IMG/VR virus record: IMGVR_UViG_2778261505_000002
DNA from: a virus
Lineage: Duplodnaviria > Heunggongvirae > Uroviricota > Caudoviricetes
Direction: 5' to 3' (one strand)
DNA: 64,000 nt
The notes under the pieces were generated by a model that ran no database searches, was not told where the DNA came from, and saw only the letters and a program-made list of their open reading frames with translations. Below, in pieces: positions 12,755 through 63,486 of this stretch (its first letter is position 1; the number at the start of each line of letters is the position of its first letter). The position numbers were made by a program, and so were the translations under genes.

Positions 12755-12760
12755 AGTACA

Positions 12761-13282: not shown

Positions 13283-13289
13283 GAGTAAA

Positions 13290-14546: not shown

Positions 14547-14905
14547 TGTCCATGAAAATGGGTGACCTAGCAAAGCGCAAAGAGCCTGATGCACCGGCTA
14601 AGAACACAACTCCTTTGCGCCAACCAGTCAGACCACAGGGACGCCCGACTCGTGGCAAAGAGAAAATTAAAAGCCGCACAATGTCACTGGAGGACGAATA
14701 CTTCGAACTGCTGGAGATGATGAAGTTCATCCCTCGCTTCGAGAAGTTCACTCGTTCTGACGTGATTCGAGCAGCCATTTTCCATCTGGCAGAGAAGTCA
14801 CCGCAGGAAATCGAGGACATCGTGAAATTGAATGAGGCGATCACCGCTGCCGATGTCACGATGCGTACCGATGAAATCAAACGAGAGTTGATGAAGAAAG
14901 GTTAA
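14546..14905 (+). CDS. Small centromere-binding partition protein (ParG/ParB-like, type Ib)
   Basis: 119 aa, basic N-terminal tail, operonic with parA (overlapping start/stop). Confidence 0.6.
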   Translation: MSMKMGDLAKRKEPDAPAKNTTPLRQPVRPQGRPTRGKEKIKSRTMSLEDEYFELLEMMKFIPRFEKFTRSDVIRAAIFHLAEKSPQEIEDIVKLNEAITAADVTMRTDEIKRELMKKG

Positions 14906-14910
14906 AAATC

Positions 14911-14941
14911 ATGCATTGGCGCGTACATTGCGCCAATGCAT
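14911..14941. terminator. 12-bp perfect hairpin between convergent genes (terminator or protein-binding site)
   Basis: ATGCATTGGCGC-GTACATT-GCGCCAATGCAT; a T-run follows on the minus strand. Confidence 0.5.
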
Positions 14942-14957
14942 AACTACAGTGTCAGCT

Positions 14958-15725
14958 TTATGCCGCGCTAACACTATGTTCAGTCCTAACCACCCCAACC
15001 TTCACAAAAGGGCTACCGTAGCTTGGTGGCTTCTTGATTAATTTGCCTACATACAGTTTTCTAATATGCTCATCGGCTATTCTGCCAACAAATTCATAAC
15101 GTTTTGTGTCGGGGCCAAGAGCTATATCCCTTGTAAAGTACTGCTGAGAACCGGCTTTGACCCAGCATTCAATCTGATAAACTTCCATTATCAGCCCACC
15201 ATATGTAGCGTAGGCATATTTGAGATTCTCGTCTCTTGGAACCTTTGCCCATACGCCACGCGTAGCTTCATATAATGCCAGAGCGGACATTCCTGACTTG
15301 TAGGTGCTGTTTAGCAGGAAGGCAAGACCGGCGTGCTCAGGAGCAATTTCAGTTTCCTCTTGCAGCACTAAGTGATGGTAGGCGTCTAGTGATATTCTGC
15401 CCATCATGGAACCACTTCCTCGTACCTTATTCGTAAGCTCTCCGACCCCCATAAGGTCGATGCATGTCGCCTCAACAAGTTTGGCTGTGGTTTCATCCAT
15501 ACCATGACGAAGTATATCTATGCCTAATTTTTTATTAGCCAAAAGTTCTTTGATCCGCATGGATTTGGGAGAGTCATCGGGATACTTGATGTGATCGAGA
15601 CAACGAGTCGATTTGCCTTTTCCTATGTAAAACGGTCTTTTCATCTTGTCTTCTGTATCATAGAGACAGTAAACATAGTATTTAGCCTTATCCAATGATC
15701 TCGCGTATACCGATAAATCGTCCAT
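14958..15725 (-). CDS. GIY-YIG nuclease-domain protein
   Basis: N-terminal YVYCLYD...PFYIGKGK motif (GIY-YIG); 255 aa; isolated on the minus strand. Confidence 0.6.
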   Translation of the reverse strand: MDDLSVYARSLDKAKYYVYCLYDTEDKMKRPFYIGKGKSTRCLDHIKYPDDSPKSMRIKELLANKKLGIDILRHGMDETTAKLVEATCIDLMGVGELTNKVRGSGSMMGRISLDAYHHLVLQEETEIAPEHAGLAFLLNSTYKSGMSALALYEATRGVWAKVPRDENLKYAYATYGGLIMEVYQIECWVKAGSQQYFTRDIALGPDTKRYEFVGRIADEHIRKLYVGKLIKKPPSYGSPFVKVGVVRTEHSVSAA

Positions 15726-15837
15726 TATTGCATCTCTTTGCTACTGACTAATGCGTTCTATTTTACACATAAGTTTTTAATCAATTTAACAGGCTCAAAG
15801 TGTAGAGCTTCTGGGCGTCTAAGACGACAAGTTATGC

Positions 15838-15892
15838 CTGCTTCCGTATATATAAATAATAAGTAACTTATTAAATATATACGGAAGCAGGT
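15838..15892. repeat. Large palindrome (17-bp inverted arms around an AT-rich palindromic core)
   Basis: CCTGCTTCCGTATATAT ... ATATATACGGAAGCAGG; a near-identical element recurs at 61770-61825. Confidence 0.7.
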
Positions 15893-15998
15893 CTTTTAAA
15901 AGACACCACCAGAACAACTCCCTTCCGTTTCCACTTCCAAAAACTGCCACCAGTCGCTATCATCCGCTCATTGTGATAAGTAAGTAACTACCTACCAG

Positions 15999-16748
15999 GT
16001 GAGCCACATGAGCCAAATCTTTTTCGATACCATCGACAACGACCAGTACGACTTCATGACAGAGTGGAATACCGCTGTTATGGACAAGTGGGTCGCTGAA
16101 AACATTGGTTTGTCGCGCTGTAAAGACGAGGCTGAACTCTTCGAGACGAAGTGGTTTGATTACCGCGACATGCATCCTCTCATGGCCACCTGTCTTTTTA
16201 CGGAGGCATACAAACGTCAGTACTCAAATATCATGCTGACGCACGGTCGCGAACACTTTGAAACAGCTCCGTTCACCACCGGGTTAAAACGTCTGCCTTA
16301 TCAGGAGTTGTCGACTGCCAATAAAACGTCGCTATGGAAAGCACGCCAGTTTGCGGATCGCTATTGCTGCTCATACGACTACTTTATCTCCACCGTTCTT
16401 TCCGCAGCTGCACGACGGCTGTGGGACAAGCTGCCGCGCCCACAGCATTTATGGCAGCCAGAACTGATTGAGATATTTGAAGAGAAATTAGCCAGACGCG
16501 CAACAACCCGTCTGGATGACTCTCTGGTTAGCTTTAAGCATATGGGAGACATGCAGTTCAACCCGATTCAGGAAAGCTATTTTGAGTGGATTCTGGAGCG
16601 TTTGCGCACCATCCCTCGCAGCAAGCGCATACGCGCAATTTTCTCCGCTATCTGGCTAATGGAAATCGTTCCAGAGCGCCTTATTTCCGCCCACTTTCCA
16701 GAAGAACTGGAAGAAGCACGGCGGTTTATTGATCCCCTATCTAATTAA
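15999..16748 (+). CDS. Hypothetical protein (first gene of the replication block; possible helicase loader)
   Basis: 249-aa ORF directly upstream of the DnaB-like helicase; no motif recognised. Confidence 0.4.
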   Translation: MSHMSQIFFDTIDNDQYDFMTEWNTAVMDKWVAENIGLSRCKDEAELFETKWFDYRDMHPLMATCLFTEAYKRQYSNIMLTHGREHFETAPFTTGLKRLPYQELSTANKTSLWKARQFADRYCCSYDYFISTVLSAAARRLWDKLPRPQHLWQPELIEIFEEKLARRATTRLDDSLVSFKHMGDMQFNPIQESYFEWILERLRTIPRSKRIRAIFSAIWLMEIVPERLISAHFPEELEEARRFIDPLSN

Positions 16749-16791
16749 CTAATACTAGAAAACAATTTGTTTAAAAAACAAAGGAAAGCAC

Positions 16792-18132
16792 ATGACCGAA
16801 CTTTGCCATACAGGACGCGGGCTGTCCGAAGAATTTGATGAAGATTTCCAGAACAGACTGACGGCATATTTTTGTCGTGATCACGAGTTTCTTACTCGTG
16901 CGGGAGATCTGGTTGTGCCTAGCCAGTTTGCCAATGCGGCCAATGCCATATTGGTTAATATGGTTTCGGGCTATTACCGTATGTACAAGAGCGCGCCCTC
17001 TTCATCTGCAATTCTGGATATGCTTAAGCGTGCGAAACGCGATAAGACTATCCGTGAGGAACTATTCGCCGATGTTGTTGCTGCGTTTAAGCGCATCCTT
17101 GCAGAAAAATTGTCCGATACCTCGTACATGGTTGACCAGGTATCAACCTTCGCAAAAAGTGTAGCGTTTGATGATGCTCTGATTAAGGCTGCTGAACTGA
17201 AAGAGAAAGGCGACTTTCAGGGGGCGATGGCAATCATGGCCAAGGTTCAGCAGATTGGATCGAACGAAGCGACCGGAATCTATGACTACTACACCTCCGC
17301 AAGTGAGCGATTGAAAGCGCGTGAATATGAGGCTTCAGAGGAGTATGTACCAAACAGTATTACAACTGGACTCCCTCTTCTCGATAGGTTGCTGTACCAA
17401 AAAGGCTGGGCAAAGCGCGAAATGGTGCTCTTCATGGGGTTCGCTAAATCCGGTAAATCGACCGCAATGGGGGAGTTTTCCATAAACGCAACACTTGCTG
17501 GCTACAATGTTCTGTATCTCTCGCTGGAGGTTCACACCACCATTTTATCCGACCGTTTTGATGCAAGATTGTCGGAGACGGAAATGTCCAAGTTGGTGGA
17601 ACGGCGCGATGAAGTTCATCGTAAGTTGGCAGAGTTGGGAGCCTCTAAGGGGATTGGTAGTTTGTGGGTTGTTGAGCGTCCGTCAGGAAGTATGTCACCG
17701 GCAGATCTGGACCGTATGCTTAACAGTATGAAAGCCAATGGCATGGTGCCTGACATGGTTGTTGTCGACTACGCAGATTTGATGCGTGCCAGTTATGACC
17801 TTCGTGATGATCGCGCCAACATTCGTAGTATCTACACCGATTTACGTGCTCTTTATGACAAGCATAACGTTGCTGGGATCACGGCATCGCAGACAAACCG
17901 TGAAGGTGGCGCGTCAGAAGTTGCCACAATGATGCACGCTGCCGACAACATCGAAAAAGTACGTATTGCTGACCTGGTAATAACGATCAACAAAACCGAA
18001 GAAGAAGAAGCGAAAGGAGAGGCTCGTCTCTACTTTGCTGGTTCACGTAACCAGCAGGGAGGGATCAGCATTCGCGTTAAACAAAACCTCGAACAAATGC
18101 GCTTCATTGAGCGAATCTTAGACGTTACCTAA
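16792..18132 (+). CDS. Replicative DNA helicase (DnaB-like, RecA-fold C-terminal domain)
   Basis: Walker A GFAKSGKST, Walker B VVVDYADLM, and arginine-finger region (ASQTNREG). Confidence 0.8.
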   Translation: MTELCHTGRGLSEEFDEDFQNRLTAYFCRDHEFLTRAGDLVVPSQFANAANAILVNMVSGYYRMYKSAPSSSAILDMLKRAKRDKTIREELFADVVAAFKRILAEKLSDTSYMVDQVSTFAKSVAFDDALIKAAELKEKGDFQGAMAIMAKVQQIGSNEATGIYDYYTSASERLKAREYEASEEYVPNSITTGLPLLDRLLYQKGWAKREMVLFMGFAKSGKSTAMGEFSINATLAGYNVLYLSLEVHTTILSDRFDARLSETEMSKLVERRDEVHRKLAELGASKGIGSLWVVERPSGSMSPADLDRMLNSMKANGMVPDMVVVDYADLMRASYDLRDDRANIRSIYTDLRALYDKHNVAGITASQTNREGGASEVATMMHAADNIEKVRIADLVITINKTEEEEAKGEARLYFAGSRNQQGGISIRVKQNLEQMRFIERILDVT

Positions 18133-18213
18133 AAAATAAGCGTGGAGAACACCTCCACGCTTGATTCATTGGTGAAACAACTTTTCTTTTGCCAAACCAC
18201 AAAAGAAAAACAC

Positions 18214-19395
18214 ATGAGCCTTTATGTTATATCAACATTTAGGTTGGTCACAATATTGCCTGTTAAAAGTGGAATTATCGTGAGCGAGCTGAAAGAGCTA
18301 ATTACCGAATTAGATTTTGAACAATGGTTGGATACTGAAGGTATCGTTTATCGACGTGGAGGCGTGAGTGCTCGCGGTCGTGAAGTGAATATCAAGGAGT
18401 GTCCGGTATGCGGCAGCTCCAACTGGAAGGTATATTTCAATCTGACCAGTGGCGTCGGTAAATGCTTCGCTGGTGATCATCCCGAAGAGATTCAGTTCAA
18501 TAAGCTGGTCTTCCTCAAGCACTACAGCGGCAAATCACGACGACAGTTCGAGGAATATGTGCAGAACGCCCTTCTTTCCCAGGGGTGGGCACCAAAGAAA
18601 GAAGAGCTAGTGCTTGCAAGCACAGTCGAGTTAGAGGGGCCAGTTGCACTCCCTCGTCATTACGAGCTTCCTATAGATGGTCGTCTTCCAGACTATCTGG
18701 TTGAACGAAACATATCGCCTGAAATGGCAAAGTATTTTGACCTACGATACTGCGTCGAAGGCAAGCACGCCTATGTAGATCCGTATACAGATCAGGTTAA
18801 AGGACAGATATTCGATATGCGAATACTGATACCGGTTTACGATCTGGATGGGGTAATGAAGACATTTCAGGGACGAGACATTACCGGTACAGCAGAACGC
18901 CGCTACCTCTTTCCTATGCAGCTTCCAGCTTCAGGTAAATTTCTCTACAACGGCCATAATGCAGTCGGCAAACAGACTGTAGTTGTCTGTGAGGGTGCGT
19001 TCGATGTTATGGGGGTCAAACGAGCTATTTTCGACGAAGAAACATTACGTGATTACGTGGAGCCAATAGGAACGTTCGGGATGCATCTATCTGGCAACAC
19101 CACTCAGGATGCAGAAGATCAGTTGGGCGCGTTCCTGACGCTCAAGGCGCGTGGATTACGTAATGTGATCATGATGTGGGATAGTGAAAAGCAAGCTATA
19201 CGCAACACGATGGCCGCAGCCAGGCGACTGACCAGTATTGGTCTTAATGTCAAAGTGGCGTGTTTGGGCGAGGAAGGACTCGACCCGGGCGATGCAACGC
19301 CAGAGCAAATCATCAAAGCCTATTATCGGGCAAAACCGTATACCAAGCAGTTGGAGTTGCAAAGCAAGGTTTTGGGCATTAAGGCTCTATCATAA
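18214..19395 (+). CDS. DNA primase (zinc-binding + TOPRIM)
   Basis: CPVCGSS...CFAGDH zinc-ribbon-like motif and TOPRIM-like VVVCEGAFDVMG; start ambiguous (track ORF starts at 18142; 18214 carries the conserved AAAGAAAAACACATG context). Confidence 0.7.
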   Translation: MSLYVISTFRLVTILPVKSGIIVSELKELITELDFEQWLDTEGIVYRRGGVSARGREVNIKECPVCGSSNWKVYFNLTSGVGKCFAGDHPEEIQFNKLVFLKHYSGKSRRQFEEYVQNALLSQGWAPKKEELVLASTVELEGPVALPRHYELPIDGRLPDYLVERNISPEMAKYFDLRYCVEGKHAYVDPYTDQVKGQIFDMRILIPVYDLDGVMKTFQGRDITGTAERRYLFPMQLPASGKFLYNGHNAVGKQTVVVCEGAFDVMGVKRAIFDEETLRDYVEPIGTFGMHLSGNTTQDAEDQLGAFLTLKARGLRNVIMMWDSEKQAIRNTMAAARRLTSIGLNVKVACLGEEGLDPGDATPEQIIKAYYRAKPYTKQLELQSKVLGIKALS

Positions 19396-19470
19396 CAATC
19401 ACCTTCAAAATAAGTAGATGATTACTTATCTTTCTGTGAGAATACTTTCATCTGTTAGCTAGGAGTTGGT

Positions 19471-20253
19471 ATGAAAGACGAAATTCAGAAATTAGCCTGC
19501 GACATCATTGATAAAACTGGTTTAGAAATCAGCGAGAGCAATCGGCTAGACATCATTGAAAAAGCCGTAAAAACAGCAATGGATCATATCGCCACTCGTT
19601 TGGTCGAGATCCCGCTACCGGGGCTACCTTATCTGAAGGTTAAGTTACACGTATGGGGTGAACCTTCTTGTGCACGGCGTTCTGCATTAGTTGTTTTTAT
19701 TAGCAAAGAAAACCCGATCAGTCTTAAAGTGCAGGTTGGGGCATGGATGGATGGCAAAGTGATCTACACAAATACCGTTTTTTGTGCGTCAAATGACAGT
19801 ATTATTGAAGAGGCTATTCAAGAATCACTTCTAACTATGCATAGCTTATTTTTGCTGGAAGACAAGCAAAACTACGAAGAGTACTTACGGTCGATAAAAG
19901 GTGAGAGAACATTGTCACTTAAAGCCGATTTCGTTACCCCGACAAACCTGTTGGAAGTCTTGCTTAATAAAGGGGCTAATGATGCCGTAAATGTAATCAG
20001 AGAGAGTGAGTATGCGTCTCTTTGCGACATGTGCAAAAGCCAGTTGGATCTGGTGCATATCGTTATTGATGCTGGGAAGGCATGTGATGGCGTAATGGCG
20101 GAGTTTGCTGGGAAGATGGTCAGGATTGCTAACGAATTACCGATGATAGAGCAAGAGGCTAAATCATACGCCACCAATCATGTCACAGAGCTTCTTGTCC
20201 CCTATCGCTTAGAAAGCGATCAGCGCAAGATGATTAGCTGGGGAAGTTGGTAA
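19471..20253 (+). CDS. Hypothetical protein
   Basis: 260-aa ORF with upstream palindromic motif and GGAG RBS. Confidence 0.45.
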   Translation: MKDEIQKLACDIIDKTGLEISESNRLDIIEKAVKTAMDHIATRLVEIPLPGLPYLKVKLHVWGEPSCARRSALVVFISKENPISLKVQVGAWMDGKVIYTNTVFCASNDSIIEEAIQESLLTMHSLFLLEDKQNYEEYLRSIKGERTLSLKADFVTPTNLLEVLLNKGANDAVNVIRESEYASLCDMCKSQLDLVHIVIDAGKACDGVMAEFAGKMVRIANELPMIEQEAKSYATNHVTELLVPYRLESDQRKMISWGSW

Positions 20254-20308
20254 GCTCTCAGTGTGTCGTTTTTTACGCAAATAATGATAGGTAAGCACAA
20301 GATTATTT

Positions 20309-22921: not shown

Positions 22922-23699
22922 AAACATATTGATAAGTATTTACTTACTTATCTTTTATGTATAAGATGACTTTGTTTTCGTTGAGACGCGACTGTTTGAA
23001 CTTAAATACAAGTGCAAACGAAGAAGTCTATCTGGCAGTAGCCTAATAAGCCAAACACCAGCGAGGTCAGTTTCCAGCCTCGTTACCGAAATGGGACACA
23101 CTGAGCGAGTGTGATTGCAGAACGCAGGAGGGAACATTCATGTTCCCTCCGATGAAGTAACAGAATGGGCGGTTGGTATATTTTCAACTCCATATGACTC
23201 CCGGATTCTTAGCCACTGACCGCCCATCCTGTTACGTCATTTTGTTCAATTATGTCGTTTATACTGGGTTAAAAAGCGGCGACGTAGCCCGGCTGGTATG
23301 GTTAGCCAGCACACAACGTTGAGGCCATTACATTTTTATCAATTCTAAGGTTCTATTCACAGAGATACCGGCGAGCGTTGATATGTAACATGTTGGGCAA
23401 ACATTCAATCGGAGTAGTGGCCTCAACGTTGTGAAGACAGGATTGTTGTGTAGGTTTAACCACTGTTGCCATTGGTGCCTGTTTTCACAACAAATGATTC
23501 CATACATCACATTGTATAAATTACAAAGTAGGTGCTGTCCTCAGAAACATCATCTACTTAAAGATTTTGCCTTCTACTATTGAGCGAAGTCGAAAGCGTC
23601 TGGCACTAACGAAAAGTGCAAGTAGCGGTGCGTTTCCTGGCAGAAACTAAACCGTCGCGATTGGCACTGTTGAGTAATAAATACTGGCAGTGCTGAATT

Positions 23700-23774
23700 G
23701 ATGGTGTAGCTCAGCGGTAGAGCAGTTGGCTGTTAACCAACTGGTCGGTGGTTCGAATCCACCCACCATCGCCA
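23700..23774 (+). tRNA. tRNA-Asn (anticodon GTT)
   Basis: Cloverleaf folded by hand: 7-bp acceptor stem GATGGTG/CACCATC, anticodon loop CTGTTAA, GGTTCGAATCC T-arm, encoded CCA. Confidence 0.85.
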
Positions 23775-23779
23775 ATTTA

Positions 23780-23866
23780 GGGGAGTTAGTCCGTAGAGGT
23801 AGCGGTGTAGACTGTAAATCTACTGTCATTGCGACTCGGGTGGTTCGACTCCATCACTCCCCACCA
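23780..23866 (+). tRNA. tRNA-Tyr (anticodon GTA), long variable arm
   Basis: Acceptor GGGGAGT/ACTCCCC, anticodon stem-loop GTAGA-CTGTAAA-TCTAC, long variable arm, T-loop TTCGACT, CCA; D-arm pairing is atypical. Confidence 0.75.
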
Positions 23867-23870
23867 AATT

Positions 23871-23946
23871 GCCGGTTTAGCTCAGTTGGTAGAGCGCCTG
23901 CCTTGTAAGCAGGATGTCAGCGGTTCGAGTCCGTTAACCGGCACCA
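23871..23946 (+). tRNA. tRNA-Thr (anticodon TGT)
   Basis: Acceptor GCCGGTT/AACCGGC, D-arm GCTCAGTTGGTAGAGC, anticodon loop CTTGTAA, T-loop TTCGAGT, CCA. Confidence 0.85.
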
Positions 23947-24163
23947 ACACAACAGGAAAGAGCATTGAAAACCGCCGAGACTGCCCTGTTTTAAGCGTAA
24001 GTCCGTGCAAACGTCATACAGTGCTCTTTTCGTTGTGGTTGATGCGCAGACTGATGCGCGGAAAGAAATGCCCCAGCGACACACGAGGCGAGTTCACACA
24101 CTGCAATGCAGTCAGTAGCCGGGGTCGCTAAGCCGGAGATCAGTACCGGTAACCACAACAATT

Positions 24164-24250
24164 GGAGAGTAGGGAGCATGGTGCTCAAGCGGTCTTGAAA
24201 ACCGTCCCATTGTGCAAGCGATGATGGTTCGATTCCATTACTCTCCGCCA
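24164..24250 (+). tRNA. tRNA-Ser (anticodon TGA), type II with long variable arm
   Basis: Acceptor GGAGAGT/ACTCTCC, anticodon loop CTTGAAA, 17-nt variable arm, T-loop TTCGATT, CCA. Confidence 0.75.
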
Positions 24251-25274: not shown

Positions 25275-26378
25275 ATGAAAAATAGCTTTGACAGAGCACG
25301 CGCTGCGGAGAACACCTCAAAAGAGGCGATTGAGTATCTCGAAAGAGCATCTCAAATGCAGGCCGTTATGATCTCGCAGGTTAGCAATGATATGAGATTC
25401 TCGGACGCATTCATGTTATTTACTCGCTTATCTCTGCTGATAACCAGACGTCGGCCAGAGATCGCTGTTCATTGTATTTTGATACATGTTTTGCCGCACA
25501 TTGCCGATGTAAAAGTAAGTGACATTAATAGGTTCATGGTGAACCAACTGGTCAACCCACTAATACTGGATGGCAAAATTGTTATGGGCCGCCGCGTTTT
25601 CTCTCTGATGAAGCAGTTCCTTAGCTGGTGCGCCTTCCAGGGGATGATAGACGTGTCACCGTTAAACGATATGTCACTTAACAAAGTTGCCGGTGGCGCA
25701 AAGCCCACACCTCGCGAGCGGAAGCTGACCGACGCAGAGGTATGGGTGTTCTGGAATATATGGGACTACTTCAATGTGTGCGCTGGTACAAAATGGGCGG
25801 CCAGGCTGTGTCTTGTATCCGCAAGACGACCTGACGAAGTACTGCGGGCTAAAAAAAGTGAGTTCAATCTTAAGCGTGGGGTTTGGAATCAAGGCAAGAG
25901 GAACAAATCTGCCCGTGAGCATTCGCTGCCTTTAAGCACATTAATGCGCACATGTATTGAAGAGTTGTTCGAATACGGTAAAGGCAGCCAGTGGCTCGTG
26001 CCTTCGAATAAAAAAATCGGGAAAGACCTTCCTATGTCTAAAGTGGCAATAGCCCAGGCATTACGTCGTATTCTGGAACGACCAGAACTGATGGAGCTTG
26101 AGCCATTTACACCCCGAGACTTGCGCCGTACTGCGCGTAGTTACTTCCCAGCATTAGGCATAAGCCAGGAGGTATCACGTAAAATCATGAACCACAGTCT
26201 TGAGGGGATAGATCGAGTCTACGACCGGCACGATTATATGGACGAGATGCGAGACGCCTTAGAAAGTTTCTCGACGTACATCGCATCAATCGTAGAGCAA
26301 CCGGATTTAGACGAAATTGACCACAAATTCAAGGGAGATCGTCTATCAACAGAGCTTATTCGTGTAAATTTTTCATAG
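25275..26378 (+). CDS. Tyrosine site-specific recombinase (integrase or resolvase)
   Basis: C-terminal catalytic-domain pattern (…RRPDEV…, FTPRDLRRTARSY, MNHSLEGIDRVYDRHDY) consistent with the R-H-R-Y signature. Confidence 0.7.
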   Translation: MKNSFDRARAAENTSKEAIEYLERASQMQAVMISQVSNDMRFSDAFMLFTRLSLLITRRRPEIAVHCILIHVLPHIADVKVSDINRFMVNQLVNPLILDGKIVMGRRVFSLMKQFLSWCAFQGMIDVSPLNDMSLNKVAGGAKPTPRERKLTDAEVWVFWNIWDYFNVCAGTKWAARLCLVSARRPDEVLRAKKSEFNLKRGVWNQGKRNKSAREHSLPLSTLMRTCIEELFEYGKGSQWLVPSNKKIGKDLPMSKVAIAQALRRILERPELMELEPFTPRDLRRTARSYFPALGISQEVSRKIMNHSLEGIDRVYDRHDYMDEMRDALESFSTYIASIVEQPDLDEIDHKFKGDRLSTELIRVNFS

Positions 26379-26759
26379 AGACTTTATGGCCTCAACAACC
26401 TTTTGTGATGCGCCTTTCTCTTTACCGAATCGCTCGTTATATGCAGCAAGAACCTGTTTTTCGTCCTCGTTAAGAGGAGCGGTGCCTTCTTTGTATAAAA
26501 ATGCTGCGAGTTCAGGTTGGCGTTCTTCCAGCACCATCATCATAAGACGACTTGGCTCAATACCCAGCGCCAGCGCCAACGGACGAACCTTATCGATAGG
26601 CAAAGGAATTTTGCCACTTTTAATTAAAGAAAGGTTGTTGGCATTTTTATAACCAATAAGTCTGGCTATTTGGGCCTGACTCATAGGTGAGGATTCAATC
26701 AGCCCTGCGATAAAAGCAGCATAGCGACTTTCTATAAATTCAATCTTGTTGTCAGACAT
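26373..26759 (-). CDS. XRE-family helix-turn-helix transcriptional regulator
   Basis: HTH segment (MSQAQIARLIGYKNANNLSLIKSGK); start set at internal ATG (track ORF extends to 26789); divergent from the downstream AT-rich region. Confidence 0.65.
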   Translation of the reverse strand: MSDNKIEFIESRYAAFIAGLIESSPMSQAQIARLIGYKNANNLSLIKSGKIPLPIDKVRPLALALGIEPSRLMMMVLEERQPELAAFLYKEGTAPLNEDEKQVLAAYNERFGKEKGASQKVVEAIKSL

Positions 26760-27010
26760 TGTTACAACCTTTGCGCGTTCAATTCTCACTGGTAAGTGCT
26801 TACCGATATTACATCAAAGGTTAGGGTTGTAAAGCTATTATCATTTTTTTCGATAGGCACTTAAAAGACCGGTTAAAGGCCATTGCACGGAGAAAAATTA
26901 GCCCAAAACAGGTAAGAAAATTAACTTGTATATGATATGAATGTATTCAGTATTGATATAAATTTTAGTAGTATTCCTTACCATAGTATAAGTTAGAATG
27001 GATTGATTGA

Positions 27011-29430: not shown

Positions 29431-29525
29431 ACAAAACAGCCTTAATGATAAGTAACCACTTACGATAGATGATGATATATTTATATAAGAAGTTGAACGC
29501 TCATTAGAGAACAAAGGAAAAACGC

Positions 29526-35017: not shown

Positions 35018-35134
35018 TTTTTGATAGATAATAAGTAAGTACTGATCTATCATTTAACAGCTCGAAAGAGCCACGAATGAACGAAAGCCCAACGCGCATA
35101 GCGCCATCGGCCAAATCACAACAAGGAGAAACAC

Positions 35135-38541: not shown

Positions 38542-38602
38542 CTCTTGAAAATATATAAGTACTTACTTATTATTTTCGCATAACAACCACATAGGAAAAC
38601 AC

Positions 38603-43031: not shown

Positions 43032-43086
43032 TCGCCTATTCATAACTAACAAAATAAGTAAACACTAACCACAAAAGGAAAAACAC

Positions 43087-43362: not shown

Positions 43363-43577
43363 GTTTACAGTAAAGTTTATATAAGTTAGTATCTACCTAT
43401 CATGAAGATTTTTATTGAATACTTGTTACTCATCGTTTCAATAGCTTTTGTCATCGACTGCATTTTCACTGGTGTCATTCGTAAAGTCTTTTCCCCGGTG
43501 CACGACGTAGTCATAAACGCTTTGGCTATCGTGCTCGTATTTAATTCAGCATTTGATGTAATCAAAGAGGTGGCAGC

Positions 43578-44172: not shown

Positions 44173-44705
44173 ACCGCTGACAGCATACACAATCAACTAC
44201 CGCTGATAGCATATCGAGAGTCTATCTCACCGCTCACAGCATACATTACTCGATTTTTTACCGCTGACAGCATACTTAAGAAATTGCATGAATAATGTGT
44301 CCCGGTATGGGTATAACCAGAACAAAATTACCGCTGGCAGCATACGAATGTCTGACATATACCATTAATTACCGCTGATAGCATATCCAAACAAAAATTC
44401 CTCAATAAAACACCGCTGACAGCATACATTCTATCAGAGAGTAGCAGGCAATAAATGCCTTTCACTACAAGCAATCAGCGCAATAGCAATAGAATGTTAG
44501 TGAGCGCAAACCTATATGGAATGCACTCTTCGAGGTTAGTAACCACTGGGGAGGTATGACAGAGCATTGAGTGGTGATAGATGATTTACCGCTCACAGCA
44601 TACGTTCATCTCACTATACCGCTGGTAGCATATCTTTAACCGTTCACAGCATACTTTTCAGAAAAATAGCCGCTGATAGCATACATTTCACCGCTGACAG
44701 CATAT
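44173..44705. repeat. Iteron array downstream of repA (incA-like), about 12 copies of a 16-bp repeat
   Basis: ACCGCTGACAGCATAC and close variants at about 44173, 44199, 44228, 44259, 44329, 44370, 44411, 44587, 44618, 44639, 44668, 44690; variable spacing; ends at the rep stop codon. Confidence 0.85.
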
Positions 44706-45799
44706 CAAAGCAGTTTGAGACTATTGGAAAGGATCTCAATCATCTTGATATTTTCAGGCGTCAAATTCTGCGAAAGTTCGGTTATCTTGTTGATAATGTT
44801 CTGTTTGGCATCAATTTCCCCAGCTTTCTCATCTGGTTTTTTGGGTTCGATGTCTTCAGGTTTTGGCGGTGCGACTTTGAGTTTTGGATTGCGGCTGTGA
44901 ATCTGGATATAGATCGACCGCCCACGCTTAATCTCGCTGTATTCGAGATAGCCCAAATCTTGGAGAGCTTTTAAGCCGTTACGTATAGTCTGATTCTGCG
45001 AGCTGACATTCCTGCTACTCAAATTGAGTCGCGCACGCAATCGAGCAAGCGATACCGGCGCAGGCTTGGTTGGAAGACTTTCGATGAAGGTGTACAGAGC
45101 CTGTGCTGTTTCTTTGCGTGGTAGCTTATTGATAACCTTTAACTGCAAAAGAACCTTATGGTCAAAGCGATATAGTTCGGCCAGCTTCGGTTCTGCATAG
45201 AACACCACCGTATCTTTCTGCTCGTTGTAGTCCACGCTATTGATGAGGTGCACCATCAGAAGCGAGATCTTGTTAGAGCCGTCGACGTTCTTTTCTTCAT
45301 ACGTTCTCTGGAAAGACAGAGTTGTACGCATGATCTTCAAAAGACTGTTTGTAAGCCGGTCGCGGAGTGTTTTGCGGATCTGTGACGATGGATAGCCACA
45401 AAACTTAGCAAATTTCGTGATACTTAACTCGACACGACCGTTAGGTTCGCCGTATTCTGCCAGCGAACGCACAACGCCCACCCACGTTTTGAAATCATGA
45501 TCCATGTCGAGACGAGGACCGGTTATCTTGATATCGGAATAGCCTTCAGAACGGGCTACTTCGAGCTGGACAAGCTCCTTTGAAGCATCGATCTCATTTG
45601 GCTTGTTACGTTTACTGTATTTTGTTCCCTTAAGCGTGGGGACGAACAACCCCAGTCGCATCAACGCAATTGGTTGGACTGTATTGTTGCTATTAGGGAC
45701 AAGTTCCCCTGTGTACAATTCAAGGGAACCTTCTTCAAAGTTGTCGATGTTATCTTCTACTTCTTTGTTATTTTTACCTTTTTTATTTTTTGTGGACAT
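44705..45799 (-). CDS. repA: Plasmid-type replication initiator (RepA-like, iteron-binding)
   Basis: Flanked on both sides by arrays of the same 16-bp iteron; start set at ATG after AAAGG RBS (track ORF extends to 45919 across the upstream iterons); basic protein of RepA-like size. Confidence 0.7.
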   Translation of the reverse strand: MSTKNKKGKNNKEVEDNIDNFEEGSLELYTGELVPNSNNTVQPIALMRLGLFVPTLKGTKYSKRNKPNEIDASKELVQLEVARSEGYSDIKITGPRLDMDHDFKTWVGVVRSLAEYGEPNGRVELSITKFAKFCGYPSSQIRKTLRDRLTNSLLKIMRTTLSFQRTYEEKNVDGSNKISLLMVHLINSVDYNEQKDTVVFYAEPKLAELYRFDHKVLLQLKVINKLPRKETAQALYTFIESLPTKPAPVSLARLRARLNLSSRNVSSQNQTIRNGLKALQDLGYLEYSEIKRGRSIYIQIHSRNPKLKVAPPKPEDIEPKKPDEKAGEIDAKQNIINKITELSQNLTPENIKMIEILSNSLKLL

Positions 45800-45819
45800 G
45801 TGGACACCTTTGTCATTCA

Positions 45820-45921
45820 ACCGCTGACAGCATACTTGATTTGCCGCTGACAGAATACCAAAAACAGTTGGCAGCATACGGTGAACCGCTGACAGACTAT
45901 CAATTACCGCTGACAGCATAC
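45820..45921. repeat. Iteron array upstream of repA (incC/origin-like), 5 copies at ~21-23 bp spacing
   Basis: ACCGCTGACAGCATAC-type repeats at 45820, 45843, ~45864, 45885, 45906, overlapping the presumed rep promoter. Confidence 0.85.
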
Positions 45922-46765: not shown

Positions 46766-47019
46766 CCCTCCAGATCGTATATTGGCGTAGATAGAATCTA
46801 CGCCTCCTCAAAATAGCTCTCATAGCGTTCTACAGTGATCCTGTCTTATTTTTAGTCATACAGACAAGCAAAGTTGCGCCACAATAAATAGGTATATACT
46901 TACTTATAAATTTTGTATATTAAGACGCTCGTTTCATTCCTAACATACCGTTATGCATAGTTGTTTACCTTCTCATTGCTCTTAAAATTTGTATCAAAAT
47001 AACCACAAAGGAAAAACAC

Positions 47020-51563: not shown

Positions 51564-51636
51564 TTTCATTGATAGGTAAGTACTTATCTATTAACATGGG
51601 CCACTATATTTAGTGGCCCTCTTTATTTGGTGATAC

Positions 51637-55278: not shown

Positions 55279-56148
55279 ATGAACTTTACCAAACTGACTG
55301 ACCACCTGAAACTTGCCACCGATCGACTCATTGGATTTAAGCCAGAACCATATGAGTTGCATGAAGGCCATGGTGTAGCCACTGAAAGTATTTACAAGAT
55401 GGTCGATCAGTTTCATGAACTCTTCCAGCATCCGAGACGCGTTATGCCGACACCAGAGCTGCTTCGTCTCCGTGCAAGCCTGATTCATGAAGAAGCTGTA
55501 GTGGAAGGTATTCCAGCCGCAATGAATGGGGATATTGAGCAACTGCTGGATGCAATGGCCGACTTTTTATACGTTGGTGTTGGTACGATGGTCGCCATCA
55601 AAGGTGGTATTTCTACCGGCATGACTTATTACACGCAGGAACAGAGCATTGATCGCTTTATGCAGACAATTTTTGTGCCTGGTAACACTGTTTTCGATGA
55701 TATGGCAATGCCATTTCAGGAAGCTCGTGAGGCGTCATGTATGCTCGAAGAGCTGGCAGATAAACTTGAGAAGAAGACTGTTAAGGATTCTGAGCTGATT
55801 CAGGAACTGCGCCGTGTAATGAACAAAATCTATGTGGCGTGCATGATGACTTATCGACTGGCTGATTTTCTCGGTATCAATGTCGTCGAGCTGGTTGGCG
55901 AAATTCATCGGTCCAACATGACAAAATTATGGCCTGCAGATGCCGAAGAGCGTCGCCATGCTGTGGCCAACTGCAAATACGACTCTTCTGACCTGGGATT
56001 TCGCCATGCTGATGGCACCGATAAGATGATCGGTTTTCGAATTTCCGATGGAAAGATTCTGAAGTCTCCAACCTATAGTGATGTCGATTTATCCTCCTTT
56101 GTTGAGCAAGCTAAAGCCTCAGCAATGTACGGAATGATCAAAAAATAA
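55279..56148 (+). CDS. Hypothetical protein; possibly MazG-like all-alpha NTP pyrophosphohydrolase
   Basis: Helical protein with EExxE...D acidic pattern (LIHEEAVVE...DAMADFLYV); weak assignment. Confidence 0.3.
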   Translation: MNFTKLTDHLKLATDRLIGFKPEPYELHEGHGVATESIYKMVDQFHELFQHPRRVMPTPELLRLRASLIHEEAVVEGIPAAMNGDIEQLLDAMADFLYVGVGTMVAIKGGISTGMTYYTQEQSIDRFMQTIFVPGNTVFDDMAMPFQEAREASCMLEELADKLEKKTVKDSELIQELRRVMNKIYVACMMTYRLADFLGINVVELVGEIHRSNMTKLWPADAEERRHAVANCKYDSSDLGFRHADGTDKMIGFRISDGKILKSPTYSDVDLSSFVEQAKASAMYGMIKK

Positions 56149-56292
56149 TTGTAGGTAGTTATCTATCTGTGTATATTGCGCTGGCGCGTTAAATTTCTGA
56201 AACAACTATTCGTTTTTGGTGGCCTATGGCCACCATTTTTTTATCTGTCTGGTCTTGTTCTCTCAATAAATGTAAACTCACGCAATGAATAA

Positions 56293-57423
56293 GTGGTTAC
56301 TTATCTTTGTGAGGTTTTTGTGTCACTCCTTTTGAATCGTGAGCATACGAACGGTCAGGTAACAAACGCATCGTATGCAAAAGTTATTGAGACGGTGCTT
56401 AAAAGCGGCGTGCAGGCTGATGATCGCACAGGCACTGGTACTTTAAGCACCTGCTACGTTCCCTCTTACTACATGCTTACTGGTGGGACTGTGCCGCTTA
56501 TTTCTGGAAAGGCGGTAAATCTTAAGCCACTGCTTGTCGAACTTGAGTGGTATCTGAAAGGCACGGGCAACATCCAATTTCTCAAGGATAACGGCGTTAA
56601 GATTTGGGATGCATGGGCCGATGAGAATGGCGATTTGGGGCCGGTTTACGGTAAGCAGTGGCGTCGATGGGAAGATACCCGCATCGTGAGCCATAGTGAA
56701 TATCTGAGCAAGATCGCTACTTTCCGTGAACGCGGGTACAAAGTCGAGGGATACCTGGGTATCAGTGAAGATCGCGTAGTGCTGTCCCGTGAAATCGATC
56801 AGCTACAGCGTATTGTCGATACACTGCGCACGAACCCTACCGATCGTCGCATCATGCTTAACGCATGGAACGTAGGCGAGCTTGAGGATATGAAACTGCC
56901 ACCTTGCCACTTTGTCTTCTCTTTGTGGAGTCGTGAACTGGATTTTGAAACCCGTTTAACGATGGCAACTGACATTGGTCTTCAACACAGTCGCCTCGGT
57001 TACGAGTCTATCTACACCAAGATGCTATACGATCTGGAGATGGACGGCAGTGTTACTGAAACTGAACTGGATGAACTTGGAATCCCCAAACGCATCCTCA
57101 ACTCCTGCCTCGTACAGCGTAGCGTAGACACTTTTGTTGGTATGCCATTCAATATTGCTGGCTATGGCATTCTCACTCATTTTCTCGCGAAGATTACGGG
57201 TCACATGGCCGGTGCATTTGTGCATTTTGGCTTTGACGTGCATTTGTACAACAACCACATGGAAGGTGTGTGTGAGCTAATGCAACGACAGGCTCCAGAG
57301 CATTCAGATCCGGTCGTTATATTCCCTAATGAATGGTCTGAGCTGGATGATTTCAAATGGGACGAGATTCTTATTCTTGGCTATGCCCCTCTACCGTGGA
57401 TCAAGGTTCCAGTGGCGGTGTGA
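56293..57423 (+). CDS. thyA: Thymidylate synthase (ThyA family) with internal insertions
   Basis: DRTGTGTLS, IWDAWADENGDLGPVYGKQWRRW, RRIMLNAWNVGEL, LPPCH, PFNIAGY motifs; ~45-aa insertion after the PCH active-site segment; start may be the GTG at 56320. Confidence 0.8.
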   Translation: MVTYLCEVFVSLLLNREHTNGQVTNASYAKVIETVLKSGVQADDRTGTGTLSTCYVPSYYMLTGGTVPLISGKAVNLKPLLVELEWYLKGTGNIQFLKDNGVKIWDAWADENGDLGPVYGKQWRRWEDTRIVSHSEYLSKIATFRERGYKVEGYLGISEDRVVLSREIDQLQRIVDTLRTNPTDRRIMLNAWNVGELEDMKLPPCHFVFSLWSRELDFETRLTMATDIGLQHSRLGYESIYTKMLYDLEMDGSVTETELDELGIPKRILNSCLVQRSVDTFVGMPFNIAGYGILTHFLAKITGHMAGAFVHFGFDVHLYNNHMEGVCELMQRQAPEHSDPVVIFPNEWSELDDFKWDEILILGYAPLPWIKVPVAV

Positions 57424-60971: not shown

Positions 60972-61154
60972 CGTTCCCCTACTTAAAATAAAGCCCATAG
61001 AGAGCTTTATAGTACTGGGTAAGCCAATCACATACCCAGCACCACAAAAACGCGCTAGAGAGCTTCTCGTTTGCATTTCTGGCGCGTTTTATTTGATTGC
61101 CAGACATAAAATCAAATGCAAAAATAGGTATATACTTACCTATCGAGAAAGAAG

Positions 61155-61769: not shown

Positions 61770-61825
61770 AGCCTGCTTCTGTATATATAAATAACTACAT
61801 ATTAATTATTAATATACGGAAGAAG
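61770..61825. repeat. Second copy of the large palindrome (CTTCTGTATATAT ... ATATACGGAAG)
   Basis: Near-identical in arms and AT-rich core to the element at 15838-15892. Confidence 0.65.
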
Positions 61826-61933
61826 GCTGTTTTGTATCAGAGACTCCAGACCTGAACATCACTACAGAATCCACTAGAACCCCTTCCCAGACGCTTTAAA
61901 ATCGATTTTATGAACCACTTTAAGGAAACCAAC

Positions 61934-62164
61934 ATGTCATACCCGACTAATGTCGTTGCGCTCGTAGAGAGCGATTTTCTGGCCCAGGCTCGTGAAATGA
62001 TGAAAGATCGTGAGCAGGCTTTCAACTTGTACGAATGGGCAATTAAGTGCTTGCATCTTGGCGAGCATCGCGAACTTGTTGAACAGCTTTTAGGTGAGTT
62101 GATCAATGAGGTGTTTGCCTTGAATGTTCAACTACATGGTAGAGAAAATAATCAATCACAATGA
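61934..62164 (+). CDS. Hypothetical small protein
   Basis: Start at ATG after AAGGAAAC (track ORF begins at 61910). Confidence 0.4.
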   Translation: MSYPTNVVALVESDFLAQAREMMKDREQAFNLYEWAIKCLHLGEHRELVEQLLGELINEVFALNVQLHGRENNQSQ

Positions 62165-62747
62165 TAGATAAGTACAAACTATTCATAAAGTGAATTGTAA
62201 GTGCTAAGATCTGATAGTTTCCAGTCGTAGACTGGAGACTCGACCTGATGGGTGGGGGTAAGCGTCACTGGCGTCAGGTTTAAAAAAAGCTCACTACCAG
62301 CGTAGAACTGGTGCCGTTTAGGTGTCGGGGAAGGGGGAACCAAAGTGAGCAGAGACAAGGGTCACTTTATGATTGTCGAGTCTGGGGTGTTTCGAGAGGT
62401 TGAATCCAGTACTCCCCTTCATAAAGTGTGGGAAGATCTCGGTTCTGGGGTGCTGTCATCCATAACTTCCCAAGTCTAAGCTGGCAGTAGACTTAGACCA
62501 TAACTTTTCAGGTTATGAAACGACCAGGTTGGTGAGAGATTTTTATACTCACCTCCCTGGGAGAGTATTACCTGAAAAGACAACCTCTCACTTCGTTCGA
62601 GGTGAACTTCACTCACTTCGTTCGTTCAGTTCAGGTTTATAAAAACCTGTTCTGGGAAGTAATTTGTTTATTTTAATAATTATTAACACGCACGCGTGTG
62701 CGCACGCGCGAGGAAAAATCGGCGCGGCGCTTGATTCAGGAGTTTAT

Positions 62748-63338
62748 ATGACGACGAAGACACCAGCCCGATCGCAAGCAAAAACTCGCAAAAAAGCCAA
62801 AAACAAAAATTCCCCCCGCACCAATCCCACAACGCCTGTCGTAGAGTTCAATCCCCAGCTTAAAACCGTGAAAATCTTTAGTGATGGCTCTTGCCTTAAA
62901 AATCCGGGTGGCCCGGGCGGTTACGGTATCGTTCTCCAGTATCGTGGTGAGGAACGCGAGTTCTCAGATGGTTTTCATAGCACCACCAATAACCGCATGG
63001 AGATGATGGGGGCACTTATCGGGCTGGAGCGTTTGAAATATCCATGCAACGTTATTTTGCACTCTGATAGCCAGTATCTGAAAAACGGCATGACACAGTG
63101 GATGAAATGGTGGAAACGCAATGGATGGATGACTTCTGACAAAAAACCAGTAAAGAATGTTGATCTGTGGAAGCGTCTGGATGAGGCCGCAAGTCGACAT
63201 AATGTTCGCTGGAAGTGGGTTAAAGGTCACGCCGGGCATCGTGAAAATGAAATATGTGATCGACTCGCGAAGATCGCAGCTTTTTCAGCAGCAGATATGC
63301 CTCACAAGAAAGATATTGGTTTTGTTTATAATAAATAG
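62748..63338 (+). CDS. rnhA: Ribonuclease HI with a basic N-terminal extension
   Basis: [60 protein letters not shown] closely match the enterobacterial RnhA motifs as I recall them; start set at ATG after GGAG (track ORF begins at 62664). Confidence 0.85.
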
Positions 63339-63486
63339 TAAGTAAGTGTTTACCTATCATTTTAAATCATGTATCTTATCGGCGTCAGGATGACAATGTG
63401 TCGGTAAGACACAGTTCCAGGATGGAACGAGAAAGGCGGCTGGCAATCGCCAGCCGCAACTCTTTCTGACACTGGATGGAGTCCAC

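Follow-up and report, generated by a model that had tools for sequence, protein, structure and literature searches.

The 64,000-nucleotide stretch of DNA analysed here (hereafter, the window), taken from the Caudoviricetes record IMGVR_UViG_2778261505_000002 of IMG/VR, carries a palindrome upstream of its nrdA gene, at positions 51571-51592, and this palindrome recurs in many other intergenic regions of the same sequence. The locus thus raises the question of what such a repeated element does: it might be the operator of a DNA-binding regulator, a promoter of a phage-specific class, an RNA structure, or a repeat of another origin. The data described below suggest, with moderate confidence, that the palindrome represents a set of dispersed operators for a phage-encoded symmetric (dimeric or tetrameric) prophage repressor.

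The alignment of the copies, which is ungapped, revealed a 22-bp palindrome (RATARGTAAGT followed directly by ACTTACYTATY) made of RRTA tetramers and present in 19 copies in the window. The half-site ATAGGTAAGTA, with no more than one mismatch, occurs 12 times against 0.68 expected, the maximum in 100 shuffles being three. A 22-column weight matrix retrieved 20 hits of at least 14 bits, compared to 0.21 in dinucleotide shuffles; this matrix was trained on the sites that it scores, and the half-site shuffle count is the independent test. All 20 matrix hits are non-coding, in a window where non-coding DNA accounts for 11.8% of the length (binomial p = 2.7e-19); one of them (61786) was assigned to another AT-rich inverted repeat, which leaves the 19 copies of the motif. 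The information content is about 22 bits over 92 sites, the left and the right half share one common consensus, and a weak symmetric A/T preference extends the motif to about 26 bp. No additional half-sites or tandem operators of at least 6 bits were found within ±80 nt of the copies.

The initial annotation of this DNA had listed 17 coordinates for the palindrome, and a copy is indeed present at each of them, within a few bases; the excess over shuffled sequence on which its claim depended is borne out by the half-site counts given above. Its estimate of at least 17 copies holds as well, with the addition of a strong copy (15975-15996) and of a variant (26787-26808) that it had missed. It had also described a conserved pair of half-sites around a varying central spacer, which has to be corrected: every copy aligns gap-free at a constant length of 22 bp, so that a spacer of variable length is ruled out, and the central differences concern the sequence only. 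Secondary scores at ±4 nt derive from the internal RRTA tetranucleotide periodicity.

Judging from its similarity to known genomes, the window is part of an SSU5-like Escherichia coli phage-plasmid. An 8-kb part of it is 99.8% identical to Escherichia phage CMS-2020a and 98.7% identical to phage Cyrano (pLF82), and with Salmonella phage SSU5 and Klebsiella phage-plasmids the identity of this part falls to about 77%; the window corresponds approximately to Cyrano 16.6-80.6 kb. It embeds genes for the tail tip and fibre, lysis, partition, replication and recombination, an integrase-repressor module, repA with iterons, and nucleotide metabolism, and nearly all of its lytic genes lie on the plus strand. 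About 13 iterons, ACCGCTGACAGCATA, at 44173-44704 and 45820-45917, flank the minus-strand repA gene (44705-45919) and constitute the plasmid replicon. Relatives are numerous: 822 plasmid records of PLSDB match a 2.5-kb SSU5 segment, and 494 plasmid records harbor an NrdA 80-90% identical to that of the window. We found no account in the literature of this motif or of operators in the SSU5 group, nor of the control of lysogeny in SSU5-like phage-plasmids.

The phylogenetic distribution of the motif was then checked in these relatives. Weight-matrix sites number about 27 in Cyrano, 27 in SSU5, 25 in the Klebsiella plasmid pKSB1_9A_3, and 26 in the Moellerella plasmid pW1-b, that is, about 25-28 copies per genome, and they occupy orthologous junctions; since orthologous sites are not independent of each other, sample sizes that pool genomes are inflated. 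The NrdA proteins of SSU5, pKSB1_9A_3, and pW1-b are 87%, 74%, and 66% identical to that of the window, respectively, and the positions of the motif are kept across hosts belonging to Enterobacteriaceae and Morganellaceae. When orthologous spacers are aligned, the motif appears as a conserved island amid diverged sequence, and orthologous copies differ at several positions while still keeping the consensus. Beyond the window, the motif-bearing junctions include TerL/portal, the 3' end of the portal gene, and those after the capsid and tail genes.

Two relatives are of particular interest in this respect. The virulent Pseudomonas phage nickie shares the whole SSU5-like gene order (its DnaB is 39% identical) and lacks the integrase, the repressor, repA, and the par genes; the matrix retrieves nothing in its genome (best score 7.7 bits), nor did counting palindromes de novo reveal any other recurrent one. 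Its orthologous junctions display ordinary -10-like sequences. Several nickie junctions also carry a variable GC-rich hairpin about 10 nt upstream of a CATAAT-type -10. The comparison, made across a large divergence, is suggestive of a motif that goes with the temperate enterobacterial clade and not with the lytic machinery. SSU5, in turn, has been described as virulent; it lacks the integrase, the XRE repressor, and the adjacent 70-aa ORF, and it retains all its motif sites. Its deletion junction was found in none of the 822 plasmid relatives. The Enterobacter plasmid pMB2617_2, whose flank is 99% identical to SSU5, harbors at the junction about 6.7 kb that include the integrase, the repressor, and the 70-aa ORF; this, in turn, implies that SSU5 is a recent deletion derivative.

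The next point concerns the molecule on which the element acts. In 90 distinct sites, the two halves form 623 Watson-Crick pairs, compared to 638 ± 9.7 when the right halves are shuffled (z = -1.6), and at columns 5 and 18 the pairings are A-T in 30 sites, A-C in 18, G-T in 16, and G-C in 16. There is therefore no compensatory variation, and the halves behave as independent draws from a single half-site consensus, which is the signature expected of a double-stranded DNA site for a symmetric protein and not of an RNA. A scan with Rfam retrieved tRNAs only and no family for the motif. With covariation between the halves absent and no Rfam family, an RNA or cruciform hairpin was rejected. More broadly, the element might act at the RNA level as a transcribed hairpin, serving as a processing site, a stabiliser, an attenuator, or an operator for an RNA-binding protein (e.g., a FljA-like one), and the many copies located just 5' of ribosome-binding sites, the two copies directly preceding terminator hairpins, and a FljA-family protein (PF03614, 1e-80) encoded by Cyrano, SSU5, and the Klebsiella plasmid would agree with it. 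Against it stand the pairing, slightly below that of shuffled halves, the AT-rich stem, most copies of which are not followed by a U-tract, the same consensus in both halves, as expected for a symmetric protein on duplex DNA, and the absence of the FljA-like gene from the motif-bearing Moellerella plasmid; we regard this explanation as the least credible of those considered. The FljA-like protein itself (Pfam "Repressor of phase-1 flagellin", 1e-80) is encoded at Cyrano 100780-101301, beyond the window, and may regulate host flagellin.

The placement of the copies relative to genes is not uniform. The motif usually starts 0-30 nt from the upstream stop codon, and the gap between its end and the following start codon is bimodal: over four genomes (92 sites), 24 gaps measure at most 20 nt, none falls between 21 and 29 nt, and the rest measure at least 30 nt. 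The short-gap class peaks at 9-16 nt, with the Shine-Dalgarno sequence directly after the motif. Across genomes, the distance to the ATG takes values from -3 nt to above 100 nt. The motif touches or runs into the ATG at three sites: window 43380, the SSU5 orthologue of this site, and Moellerella 95202. Start codons are misannotated in some cases, among them that of the SSU5 methyltransferase, which falls inside the motif. The short gaps imply that a quarter of the copies cannot be upstream of a promoter for the gene they precede. The distance of 25-115 bp from gene starts reported in the initial annotation was too narrow, the gap in the window being 0-160 nt (plus 747 nt before the tRNA cluster) and bimodal; likewise, its restriction of the motif to the early/middle gene set was not upheld, as copies also head late genes (tail fibre and holin, and, beyond the window, portal, capsid, and tail).

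Promoters and transcription start sites (TSSs) were predicted throughout with weight matrices, and the bit values reported for single copies are weight-matrix scores as well. In this AT-rich DNA, predicted promoters overlap every copy in the window, and a strict scan of 1-20000 places none at the four copies there. For short-gap sites, the best sigma70-like promoter located upstream or on the left motif end scores 7.7 on average, with 62% scoring at least 7 (mirror control: 4.0 and 8%); for long-gap sites, the best one at or after the right end scores 8.7 on average, with 67% (mirror control: 5.7 and 27%). The upstream-promoter score differs between the two classes (Mann-Whitney p = 4e-4, an optimistic value given the dependence of orthologous sites). 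Long-gap sites show two registers in which the palindrome makes up the 17-bp spacer of the promoter: in one, a -35 TTGAAA or TTGATA occupies columns -5 to 1 and a -10 TATSAT columns 19-24; in the other, TTGATA occupies columns -2 to 4 and the -10 columns 22-27. The resulting promoters are near-consensus (TTGAAA-17-TATGAT, TATCAT, or TATTAT, and TTGATA-17-TAACAT). TTGA abuts the upstream motif edge in 15 of 52 long-gap sites and never occurs at the mirror position (p = 6e-5, optimistic for the same reason), and about 15 of the 52 have a TTGA-type -35 exactly 17 bp from the -10, many copies having no recognisable -35. In some other long-gap sites (those preceding sbcD, following the primase gene, and between the ligase gene and the tRNAs), a conserved -10 that often carries an upstream TG starts 7-10 nt beyond the motif end. 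Predicted centres of the motif in the window range from about -43 to +18 relative to the start; in spacer-type sites the palindrome is centred at -19.5 or -22.5, in others near -31.

The motif is symmetric and devoid of a directional core: its ends read as -10-like in 49% versus 36% of cases, and the mirror strand is as good. A fixed -10 at motif columns 19-24 was therefore discounted as evidence of rightward transcription: the opposite strand offers a mirror hexamer that is at least as good. Phage-specific promoters such as the T7-like, T4 late, and N4 hairpin ones have a directional core and a fixed start. The phage-specific promoter class proposed in the initial annotation is thus disfavoured, also because there is no fixed distance to the -10 or to the start codon and because many copies lie between near-consensus host sigma70 -35 and -10 hexamers. 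Moreover, no phage RNA polymerase or sigma factor was found in the Cyrano or SSU5 annotations or among the proteins scanned, a screen that did not extend to every ORF. The other proposal of that annotation, an operator for a dimeric DNA-binding regulator, agrees well with a true palindrome of about 22 bits whose halves vary independently and which takes several registers over promoter-like sequence. Many registers over the polymerase footprint, including some downstream of the start, are the pattern of a repressor and its operators, as activator sites such as those of P1 Lpa, T4 MotA, Mu C, and P2 Ogr keep a fixed upstream position and helical phase.

Expression in the lysogen was evaluated from a published RNA-seq table for LF82, which carries Cyrano, as normalised counts whose values lie near the detection floor. 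CYRAN_56 reads 5.0 (the detection floor), CYRAN_69 7.6, and CYRAN_4 10.9, compared to a median of 9.8; the XRE repressor gene reads 96, about 10-fold above background, and unlinked morons read 100-7000. Several near-consensus promoters of the motif-bearing junctions would be expected to fire alone, yet their genes are at background in the lysogen, which points to repression. The genes expressed in the lysogen mostly lack the motif, with three partial exceptions, i.e., the repressor gene (with a weaker variant site), CYRAN_81 (with a degenerate copy), and the tRNA region. CYRAN_81, a small ORF after the copy at 62163, is about 12-fold above the lysogen background, which is consistent with a leaky operator, and the CYRAN_40 ORF, which overlaps the tRNAs, is 15-fold above it, probably because of tRNA signal. 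The largest induction steps in macrophages occur at CYRAN_56, then at CYRAN_60, and also at CYRAN_12, all of them at motif junctions.

On the whole, the symmetric motif, its placement and conservation across genomes, and the silence of the downstream genes in a lysogen are observed here, and from them we infer which protein binds, whether it represses, and where promoters and starts lie; the following model can be depicted. About 28 copies per genome would be built into host-type sigma70 promoters at the head of the structural, lysis, replication, and nucleotide-metabolism units of the lytic programme. While the phage persists as a plasmid prophage, the repressor would sit on every copy and keep the lytic genes silent, either by filling the spacer between -35 and -10, or by covering the -35 region, or by acting as a roadblock on the start site and the early transcribed region. 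Its loss or inactivation would free all the promoters together. The most likely binder would be the XRE protein, with a weaker variant operator at its own promoter for autoregulation.

This protein, a predicted XRE-family helix-turn-helix repressor of 128 aa encoded on the minus strand at 26373-26759, matches phrog_8 ("transcriptional regulator", 7e-12) and, weakly, HTH_19; the Pfam and PHROGs scans gave no match to the P1 C1 family, and no relative was found in the PDB. The variant copy CACTGGTAAGTGCTTACCGATA (26787-26808; 15.6 bits), with the perfect inner palindrome GGTAAGYRCTTACC, lies 27 nt upstream of its ATG (26759, minus strand) and is the presumed autoregulatory operator of the gene. 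Its recognition helix, NNLSLIKSGK, is kept wherever the motif itself is conserved, in homologues sharing 38-70% identity, with the variants NNISLIKSGR, NNISMIKSGK, and NNLSNIKTGR, and motif-like sites precede each of the corresponding genes by 48-160 nt; in the two closest groups (64-70% identical), the variant TATCRGTAAGYACTTACCAGAG precedes the repressor gene by about 48 nt. The XRE protein is the sole predicted DNA binder that is expressed in lysogeny and has a site at its own promoter. These features make it a candidate binder of the palindrome, an assignment that we consider tentative. Next to the repressor gene, the 70-aa ORF at 27011 is preceded by a putative early promoter (26960-27010, -10 TAGAAT) with the everted half-sites CTTACC-ATAG-TATAAGT in its spacer, and its orthologue CYRAN_46 is the most induced lytic-strand gene of Cyrano in macrophages (+6.4 log2).

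Several points weigh against the repressor model and, in part, in favour of other explanations. At the gene level, the expression steps at motif junctions do not differ significantly from those at other junctions (level, p = 0.38; induction, p = 0.08); the strict sigma70 scan, which covered window 1-20000 only, found no canonical promoter at its four copies; all the promoters and start sites considered here are predicted in silico; and the p-values reported for their placement are, as said, optimistic. The repressor family was found only on this phage backbone (67 of 67 viral-contig loci, the longest contigs measuring about 100-114 kb and many being shorter fragments), so that its co-occurrence with the motif is not independent evidence, and an operator of 22-26 bp conserved along its full length is long for a simple XRE dimer. 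Furthermore, the retention of every site by SSU5, which has no such repressor, also fits a function in lytic growth, the sites with no recognisable -35 have also the look of activator-dependent promoters, and the cluster of -10-like hexamers 7-10 nt after the motif, with the motif centre at about -31, could reflect an activator geometry such as that of T4 MotA boxes. These last points bear on an activator-dependent phage promoter class, in which a dimeric activator or a sigma-appropriation factor, itself encoded by a repressor-controlled gene, would replace the -35 and recruit the host RNA polymerase, in the manner of P1 Lpa late promoters or T4 MotA middle promoters. It would account for the many sites devoid of a good -35 (most of them), for the depletion of canonical sigma70 -35/-10 pairs in 1-20000 (11 versus 30 ± 6.9 in shuffles), and for the -10-like hexamer, often with TG, found after about one-fifth of the long-gap sites, and small conserved proteins of unknown function, among them an 88-aa one encoded just before the small-terminase gene, are present in all four motif-bearing genomes. 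Nevertheless, we consider it unlikely: in 24 of 92 sites the motif ends at most 20 nt before the start codon, and the factor would stand at or downstream of any usable start; the spacing to the holin -10 is 8, 12, or 14 nt in different genomes, which places it on opposite faces of the helix; several copies are framed by near-consensus -35 and -10 hexamers with the optimal 17-bp spacing, where no activator is needed; the repressor gene, active in lysogeny when all the others are silent, has a copy at its own promoter; and the symmetric motif has no directional core.

The palindrome might otherwise be a repressive operator for another protein, i.e., a KorA/KorB-like or ParB-family silencer, a small DNA-binding protein, or a Cro-like lytic regulator. 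The phage-plasmids indeed encode two ParB_N proteins as well as a type Ib ParA and its partner, a motif copy stands 16 nt ahead of the first parB-like gene, several small uncharacterised proteins shared by the four motif-bearing genomes, SSU5 included, are missing from nickie, and the length of the site, as mentioned, is large for an XRE dimer. However, the motif-less nickie conserves the ParB-like proteins as well; the parA operon, at which one would expect a centromere-binding autoregulator to act, has no copy nearby; and the remaining small proteins conserved in the four genomes have no Pfam match or recognisable DNA-binding domain, the XRE protein alone combining expression in lysogeny with a site at its own promoter; this option appears to us to be as doubtful as the activator. 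Slightly less probable than either is that the 26-bp palindrome, whose ends read as outward-facing -10-like hexamers (TATYAT on each strand), is a portable promoter-operator cassette, on which a bound switch factor (a CI-like repressor/activator or a sigma-appropriating protein) would first silence and then drive about 28 units; if this were true, cassette and factor would constitute a single-site genome-wide control not described for enterobacterial phages. Far less probable than these is a site for a host transcription factor or a selfish repeat (REP- or MITE-like), which the palindromic, intergenic, and AT-rich nature of the element could recall: orthologous positions are kept across Enterobacteriaceae and Morganellaceae hosts, the copies are single, of fixed length, and without flanking repeats or extra half-sites, and their placement follows promoter elements. 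To our knowledge, the motif matches no host consensus.

The copy AATAGGTAAGTATCTACTTAAT (5850-5871; 24.4 bits) lies between the end of the tail protein J gene (5820) and the tail-fibre ATG (5914), with orthologues at Cyrano 22447 and SSU5 21936. The copy GATAGGTAAGTACACACCTACA (11228-11249) overlaps the stop of the ORF at 10996-11229, upstream of the holin gene, and is followed by the conserved extended -10 TGATATAAA (11266-11274); the element TGTGATATAAA is kept at this site in four genomes, 8-14 nt (8, 12, 14) from the motif end, that is, with variable spacing. The strong copy GATAAGTAAGTAACTACCTACC (15975-15996) ends 11 nt before the ATG at 16008, with the Shine-Dalgarno sequence AGGTGA directly after it, and it would lie at about +6 to +27 of the predicted promoter TTCCAA-17-TATCAT (15935-15963; TSS at about 15970), which is conserved in SSU5.

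Downstream of the primase gene, the copy AATAAGTAGATGATTACTTATC (19409-19430) is followed by a -10-like TGTGAGAAT (19435-19443), and the element after it (TGTAAGAAT/TGTATAAGAT) has equal spacing in Cyrano, SSU5, and the Klebsiella plasmid. The weaker copy GATAGGTAAGCACAAGATTATT (20286-20307; 16.8 bits) has a good left half and a degenerate right half. The copy GATAAGTATTTACTTACTTATC (22931-22952; 26.5 bits) contains an internal TTTACT as a possible -35, 17 bp from a TAAGAT (22962-22967) found at identical spacing in three genomes, with a predicted TSS at about 22974; it sits upstream of a 750-nt unannotated stretch that leads to a tRNA cluster (Asn, Tyr, Thr, Ser; 23700-24250). Between the cobT-like and cobS-like genes, the copy GATAAGTAACCACTTACGATAG (29447-29468), with orthologues in four genomes, is followed by the extended -10 TGATATATT (hexamer 29476-29481). 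Upstream of the gene for a gp32-like single-stranded DNA-binding protein (SSB), the right end of the copy AATAAGTAAGTACTGATCTATC (35030-35051; 26.2 bits) is overlapped by a -10 TATCAT (35048-35053), and the Klebsiella orthologue of this site reads TTGATA-17-TATCAT. The copy AATATATAAGTACTTACTTATT (38550-38571) makes up the spacer of the near-consensus sigma70 promoter TTGAAA-17-TATTAT on the plus strand (38545-38573; score 13.5), with a predicted TSS at about 38580, an ATG at 38603, and a terminator just upstream, an architecture shared by Cyrano, SSU5, and the Klebsiella plasmid. CYRAN_56, at the detection floor in the lysogen and first in induction step in macrophages, belongs to this junction.

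The copy AATAAGTAAACACTAACCACAA (43053-43074) ends 12 nt before the ATG at 43087, its left end being overlapped by the predicted promoter TTGATC-16-CAAAAT, and TATAAGTTAGTATCTACCTATC (43380-43401) abuts the ATG (43402) of a 59-aa membrane protein, the orthologue of CYRAN_60. Here the predicted promoter TTTACA-17-TAGTAT (43364-43392) has its -10 within the motif and its TSS approximately at the ATG (43399-43402), which would yield a leaderless mRNA. The copy AATAGGTATATACTTACTTATA (46887-46908; 25.5 bits), upstream of the sbcD-like gene, is followed by a -10 TATATT (46916-46921).

The copy upstream of nrdA, GATAGGTAAGTACTTATCTATT (51571-51592; 28.1 bits), which the initial annotation had singled out as the best one, supplies the end of the -35 and the spacer of the predicted plus-strand promoter TTGATA-17-TAACAT (51569-51597; score 12.2; TSS at about 51604), which is conserved in four genomes and precedes the nrdA ATG (51637). 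Directly 3' of the motif, on the same strand, lies a GC-rich hairpin, GGGCCACT...AGTGGCCC, with a T-run (51598-51627). The layout is therefore a stop codon, the motif, 5 nt, the GC hairpin with its T-run, and the Shine-Dalgarno sequence with the ATG (51571-51636; Cyrano 5442-5522), and it recurs after the capsid gene in Cyrano, SSU5, and the Klebsiella plasmid. As the predicted start falls within the 5' arm of the hairpin, the terminator would halt read-through from upstream and not the transcripts of this promoter; motif and hairpin would then form an overlapping terminator-promoter pair that insulates transcription units.

Directly after mazG, the weak copy TAATTGTAGGTAGTTATCTATC (56146-56171; register 56146 or 56150) is followed by TATATT (56172-56177) and, about 70 nt on, by a terminator, and the copy AATAAGTGGTTACTTATCTTTG (56284-56309; 19.2 bits; register 56288 or 56284) ends 10-14 nt before the thyX start. 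The two copies bracket, within 56146-56310, the terminator GGTGGCCtatGGCCACC with its T-run (about 56236-56260); a transcript of about 70 nt could arise from the first copy, and it has no Rfam match. Before the methyltransferase ATG (61155), the copy AATAGGTATATACTTACCTATC (61123-61144; 27.7 bits) ends at a distance of 10 nt, with a terminator just upstream and a layout conserved in SSU5; the predicted promoter TTGCCA-17-AAAAAT (61097-61125; score 11.9; TSS at about 61132) has its -10 on the left end of the motif, which would span about -9 to +13. The copy GATAGATAAGTACAAACTATTC (62163-62184), with a degenerate right half, precedes CYRAN_81 and is followed by the extended -10 TGCTAAGAT (hexamer 62205-62210). 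Lastly, AGTAAGTAAGTGTTTACCTATC (63337-63358; 24.2 bits) contains an internal TTTACC, 17 bp from a TATCTT (63372-63377) conserved in three genomes. The copies at 62163 and 63337 are followed by long 5' regions (160 and 128 nt; 62185-62660 and 63359-63486) that are conserved between Cyrano and SSU5.

A second repeat family, distinct from the palindrome, occurs at 15836-15895 and 61770-61830 (also at Cyrano 31178, 78098, and 108356). It consists of a long AT-rich inverted repeat flanked by CCTGCTTCCGTATA...TATACGGAAGCAGG and followed by a T-run, and the motif reappears, shortened to 14 bp, in the centre of its first copy (AATAAGTAACTTATT). The family has the appearance of a terminator, a role as origin or in packaging being also possible.

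It is useful to compare this arrangement with known systems of dispersed control. In P1, about 22 operators "widely dispersed" over the genome hold scattered lytic operons silent through C1, a 283-aa protein that binds the asymmetric 17-bp operator ATTGCTCTAATAAATTT. Our system shares with it an enterobacterial phage-plasmid, many dispersed copies, and, here as predictions, operators placed over promoters and a repressor gene under operator control; it differs from it in the 22-bp palindrome and the 128-aa XRE-type candidate, and in the fact that the same motif also heads late genes, which in P1 depend on the separate activator Lpa. P1 and P7 are an example of relatives in which operator sequence and repressor specificity are conserved. 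The Lpa-dependent late promoters of P1 have an inverted repeat with its centre near -22, and the centre of T4 MotA boxes is at -30; the likeness consists in a repeated phage element just upstream of a host-type -10 at some promoters, the difference in that those elements are fixed to the -10 and work without a -35, whereas here the centres run from about -43 to +18, many -35s are good, and a quarter of the sites lie at or after the start. In the case of the plasmid RK2, KorB acts at about 12 dispersed palindromic operators and is a ParB-family CTPase acting also at a distance. In RK2, dispersed palindromes silence many plasmid operons through KorB and KorA as proposed here; the ParB-like genes of our phage-plasmids are shared with the motif-less nickie.

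The control of L5, a mycobacteriophage of cluster A, is the other close parallel. The L5 repressor gp71 has more than 20 operator or stoperator sites in promoters and short intergenic spaces of early and late operons and blocks both initiation and elongation; the sites are 13 bp long, asymmetric, and orientation-dependent, and gp71 binds them as a monomer through two DNA-binding domains. The lytic phage D29 arose by a recent deletion of the repressor with the sites retained, and SSU5 shows the same combination. Placement downstream of promoters in narrow intergenic gaps within operons, typical of L5, is found here in the short-gap class (TerL/portal, with a 26-bp spacer; 15975, 43053, and 61123), and such copies, lying between promoter and ribosome-binding site, would act as stoperators. 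In contrast with L5, the site is symmetric and most copies lie over promoter-like elements, most L5 stoperators being outside promoters, and the host and the protein family are unrelated. By analogy, the system would work like those of P1 C1 and L5, being a member of neither, and its logic would not be conceptually new.

SSU5-like phage-plasmids are encountered very often among clinical Escherichia, Klebsiella, Enterobacter, and Salmonella, and have been reported to carry resistance genes. If the repressor model is true, they would possess a testable lysis-lysogeny switch in which one repressor acts over about 28 operators, and the virulence of SSU5 would be explained by one deletion. The operator and the recognition helix would stay fixed from one genus to another, since a change would have to affect 28 sites in concert. 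This, in turn, would offer handles for defining immunity groups, for deriving obligately lytic phages for therapy, for curing or inducing the plasmids by titration of the repressor, and for annotating promoters in this family.

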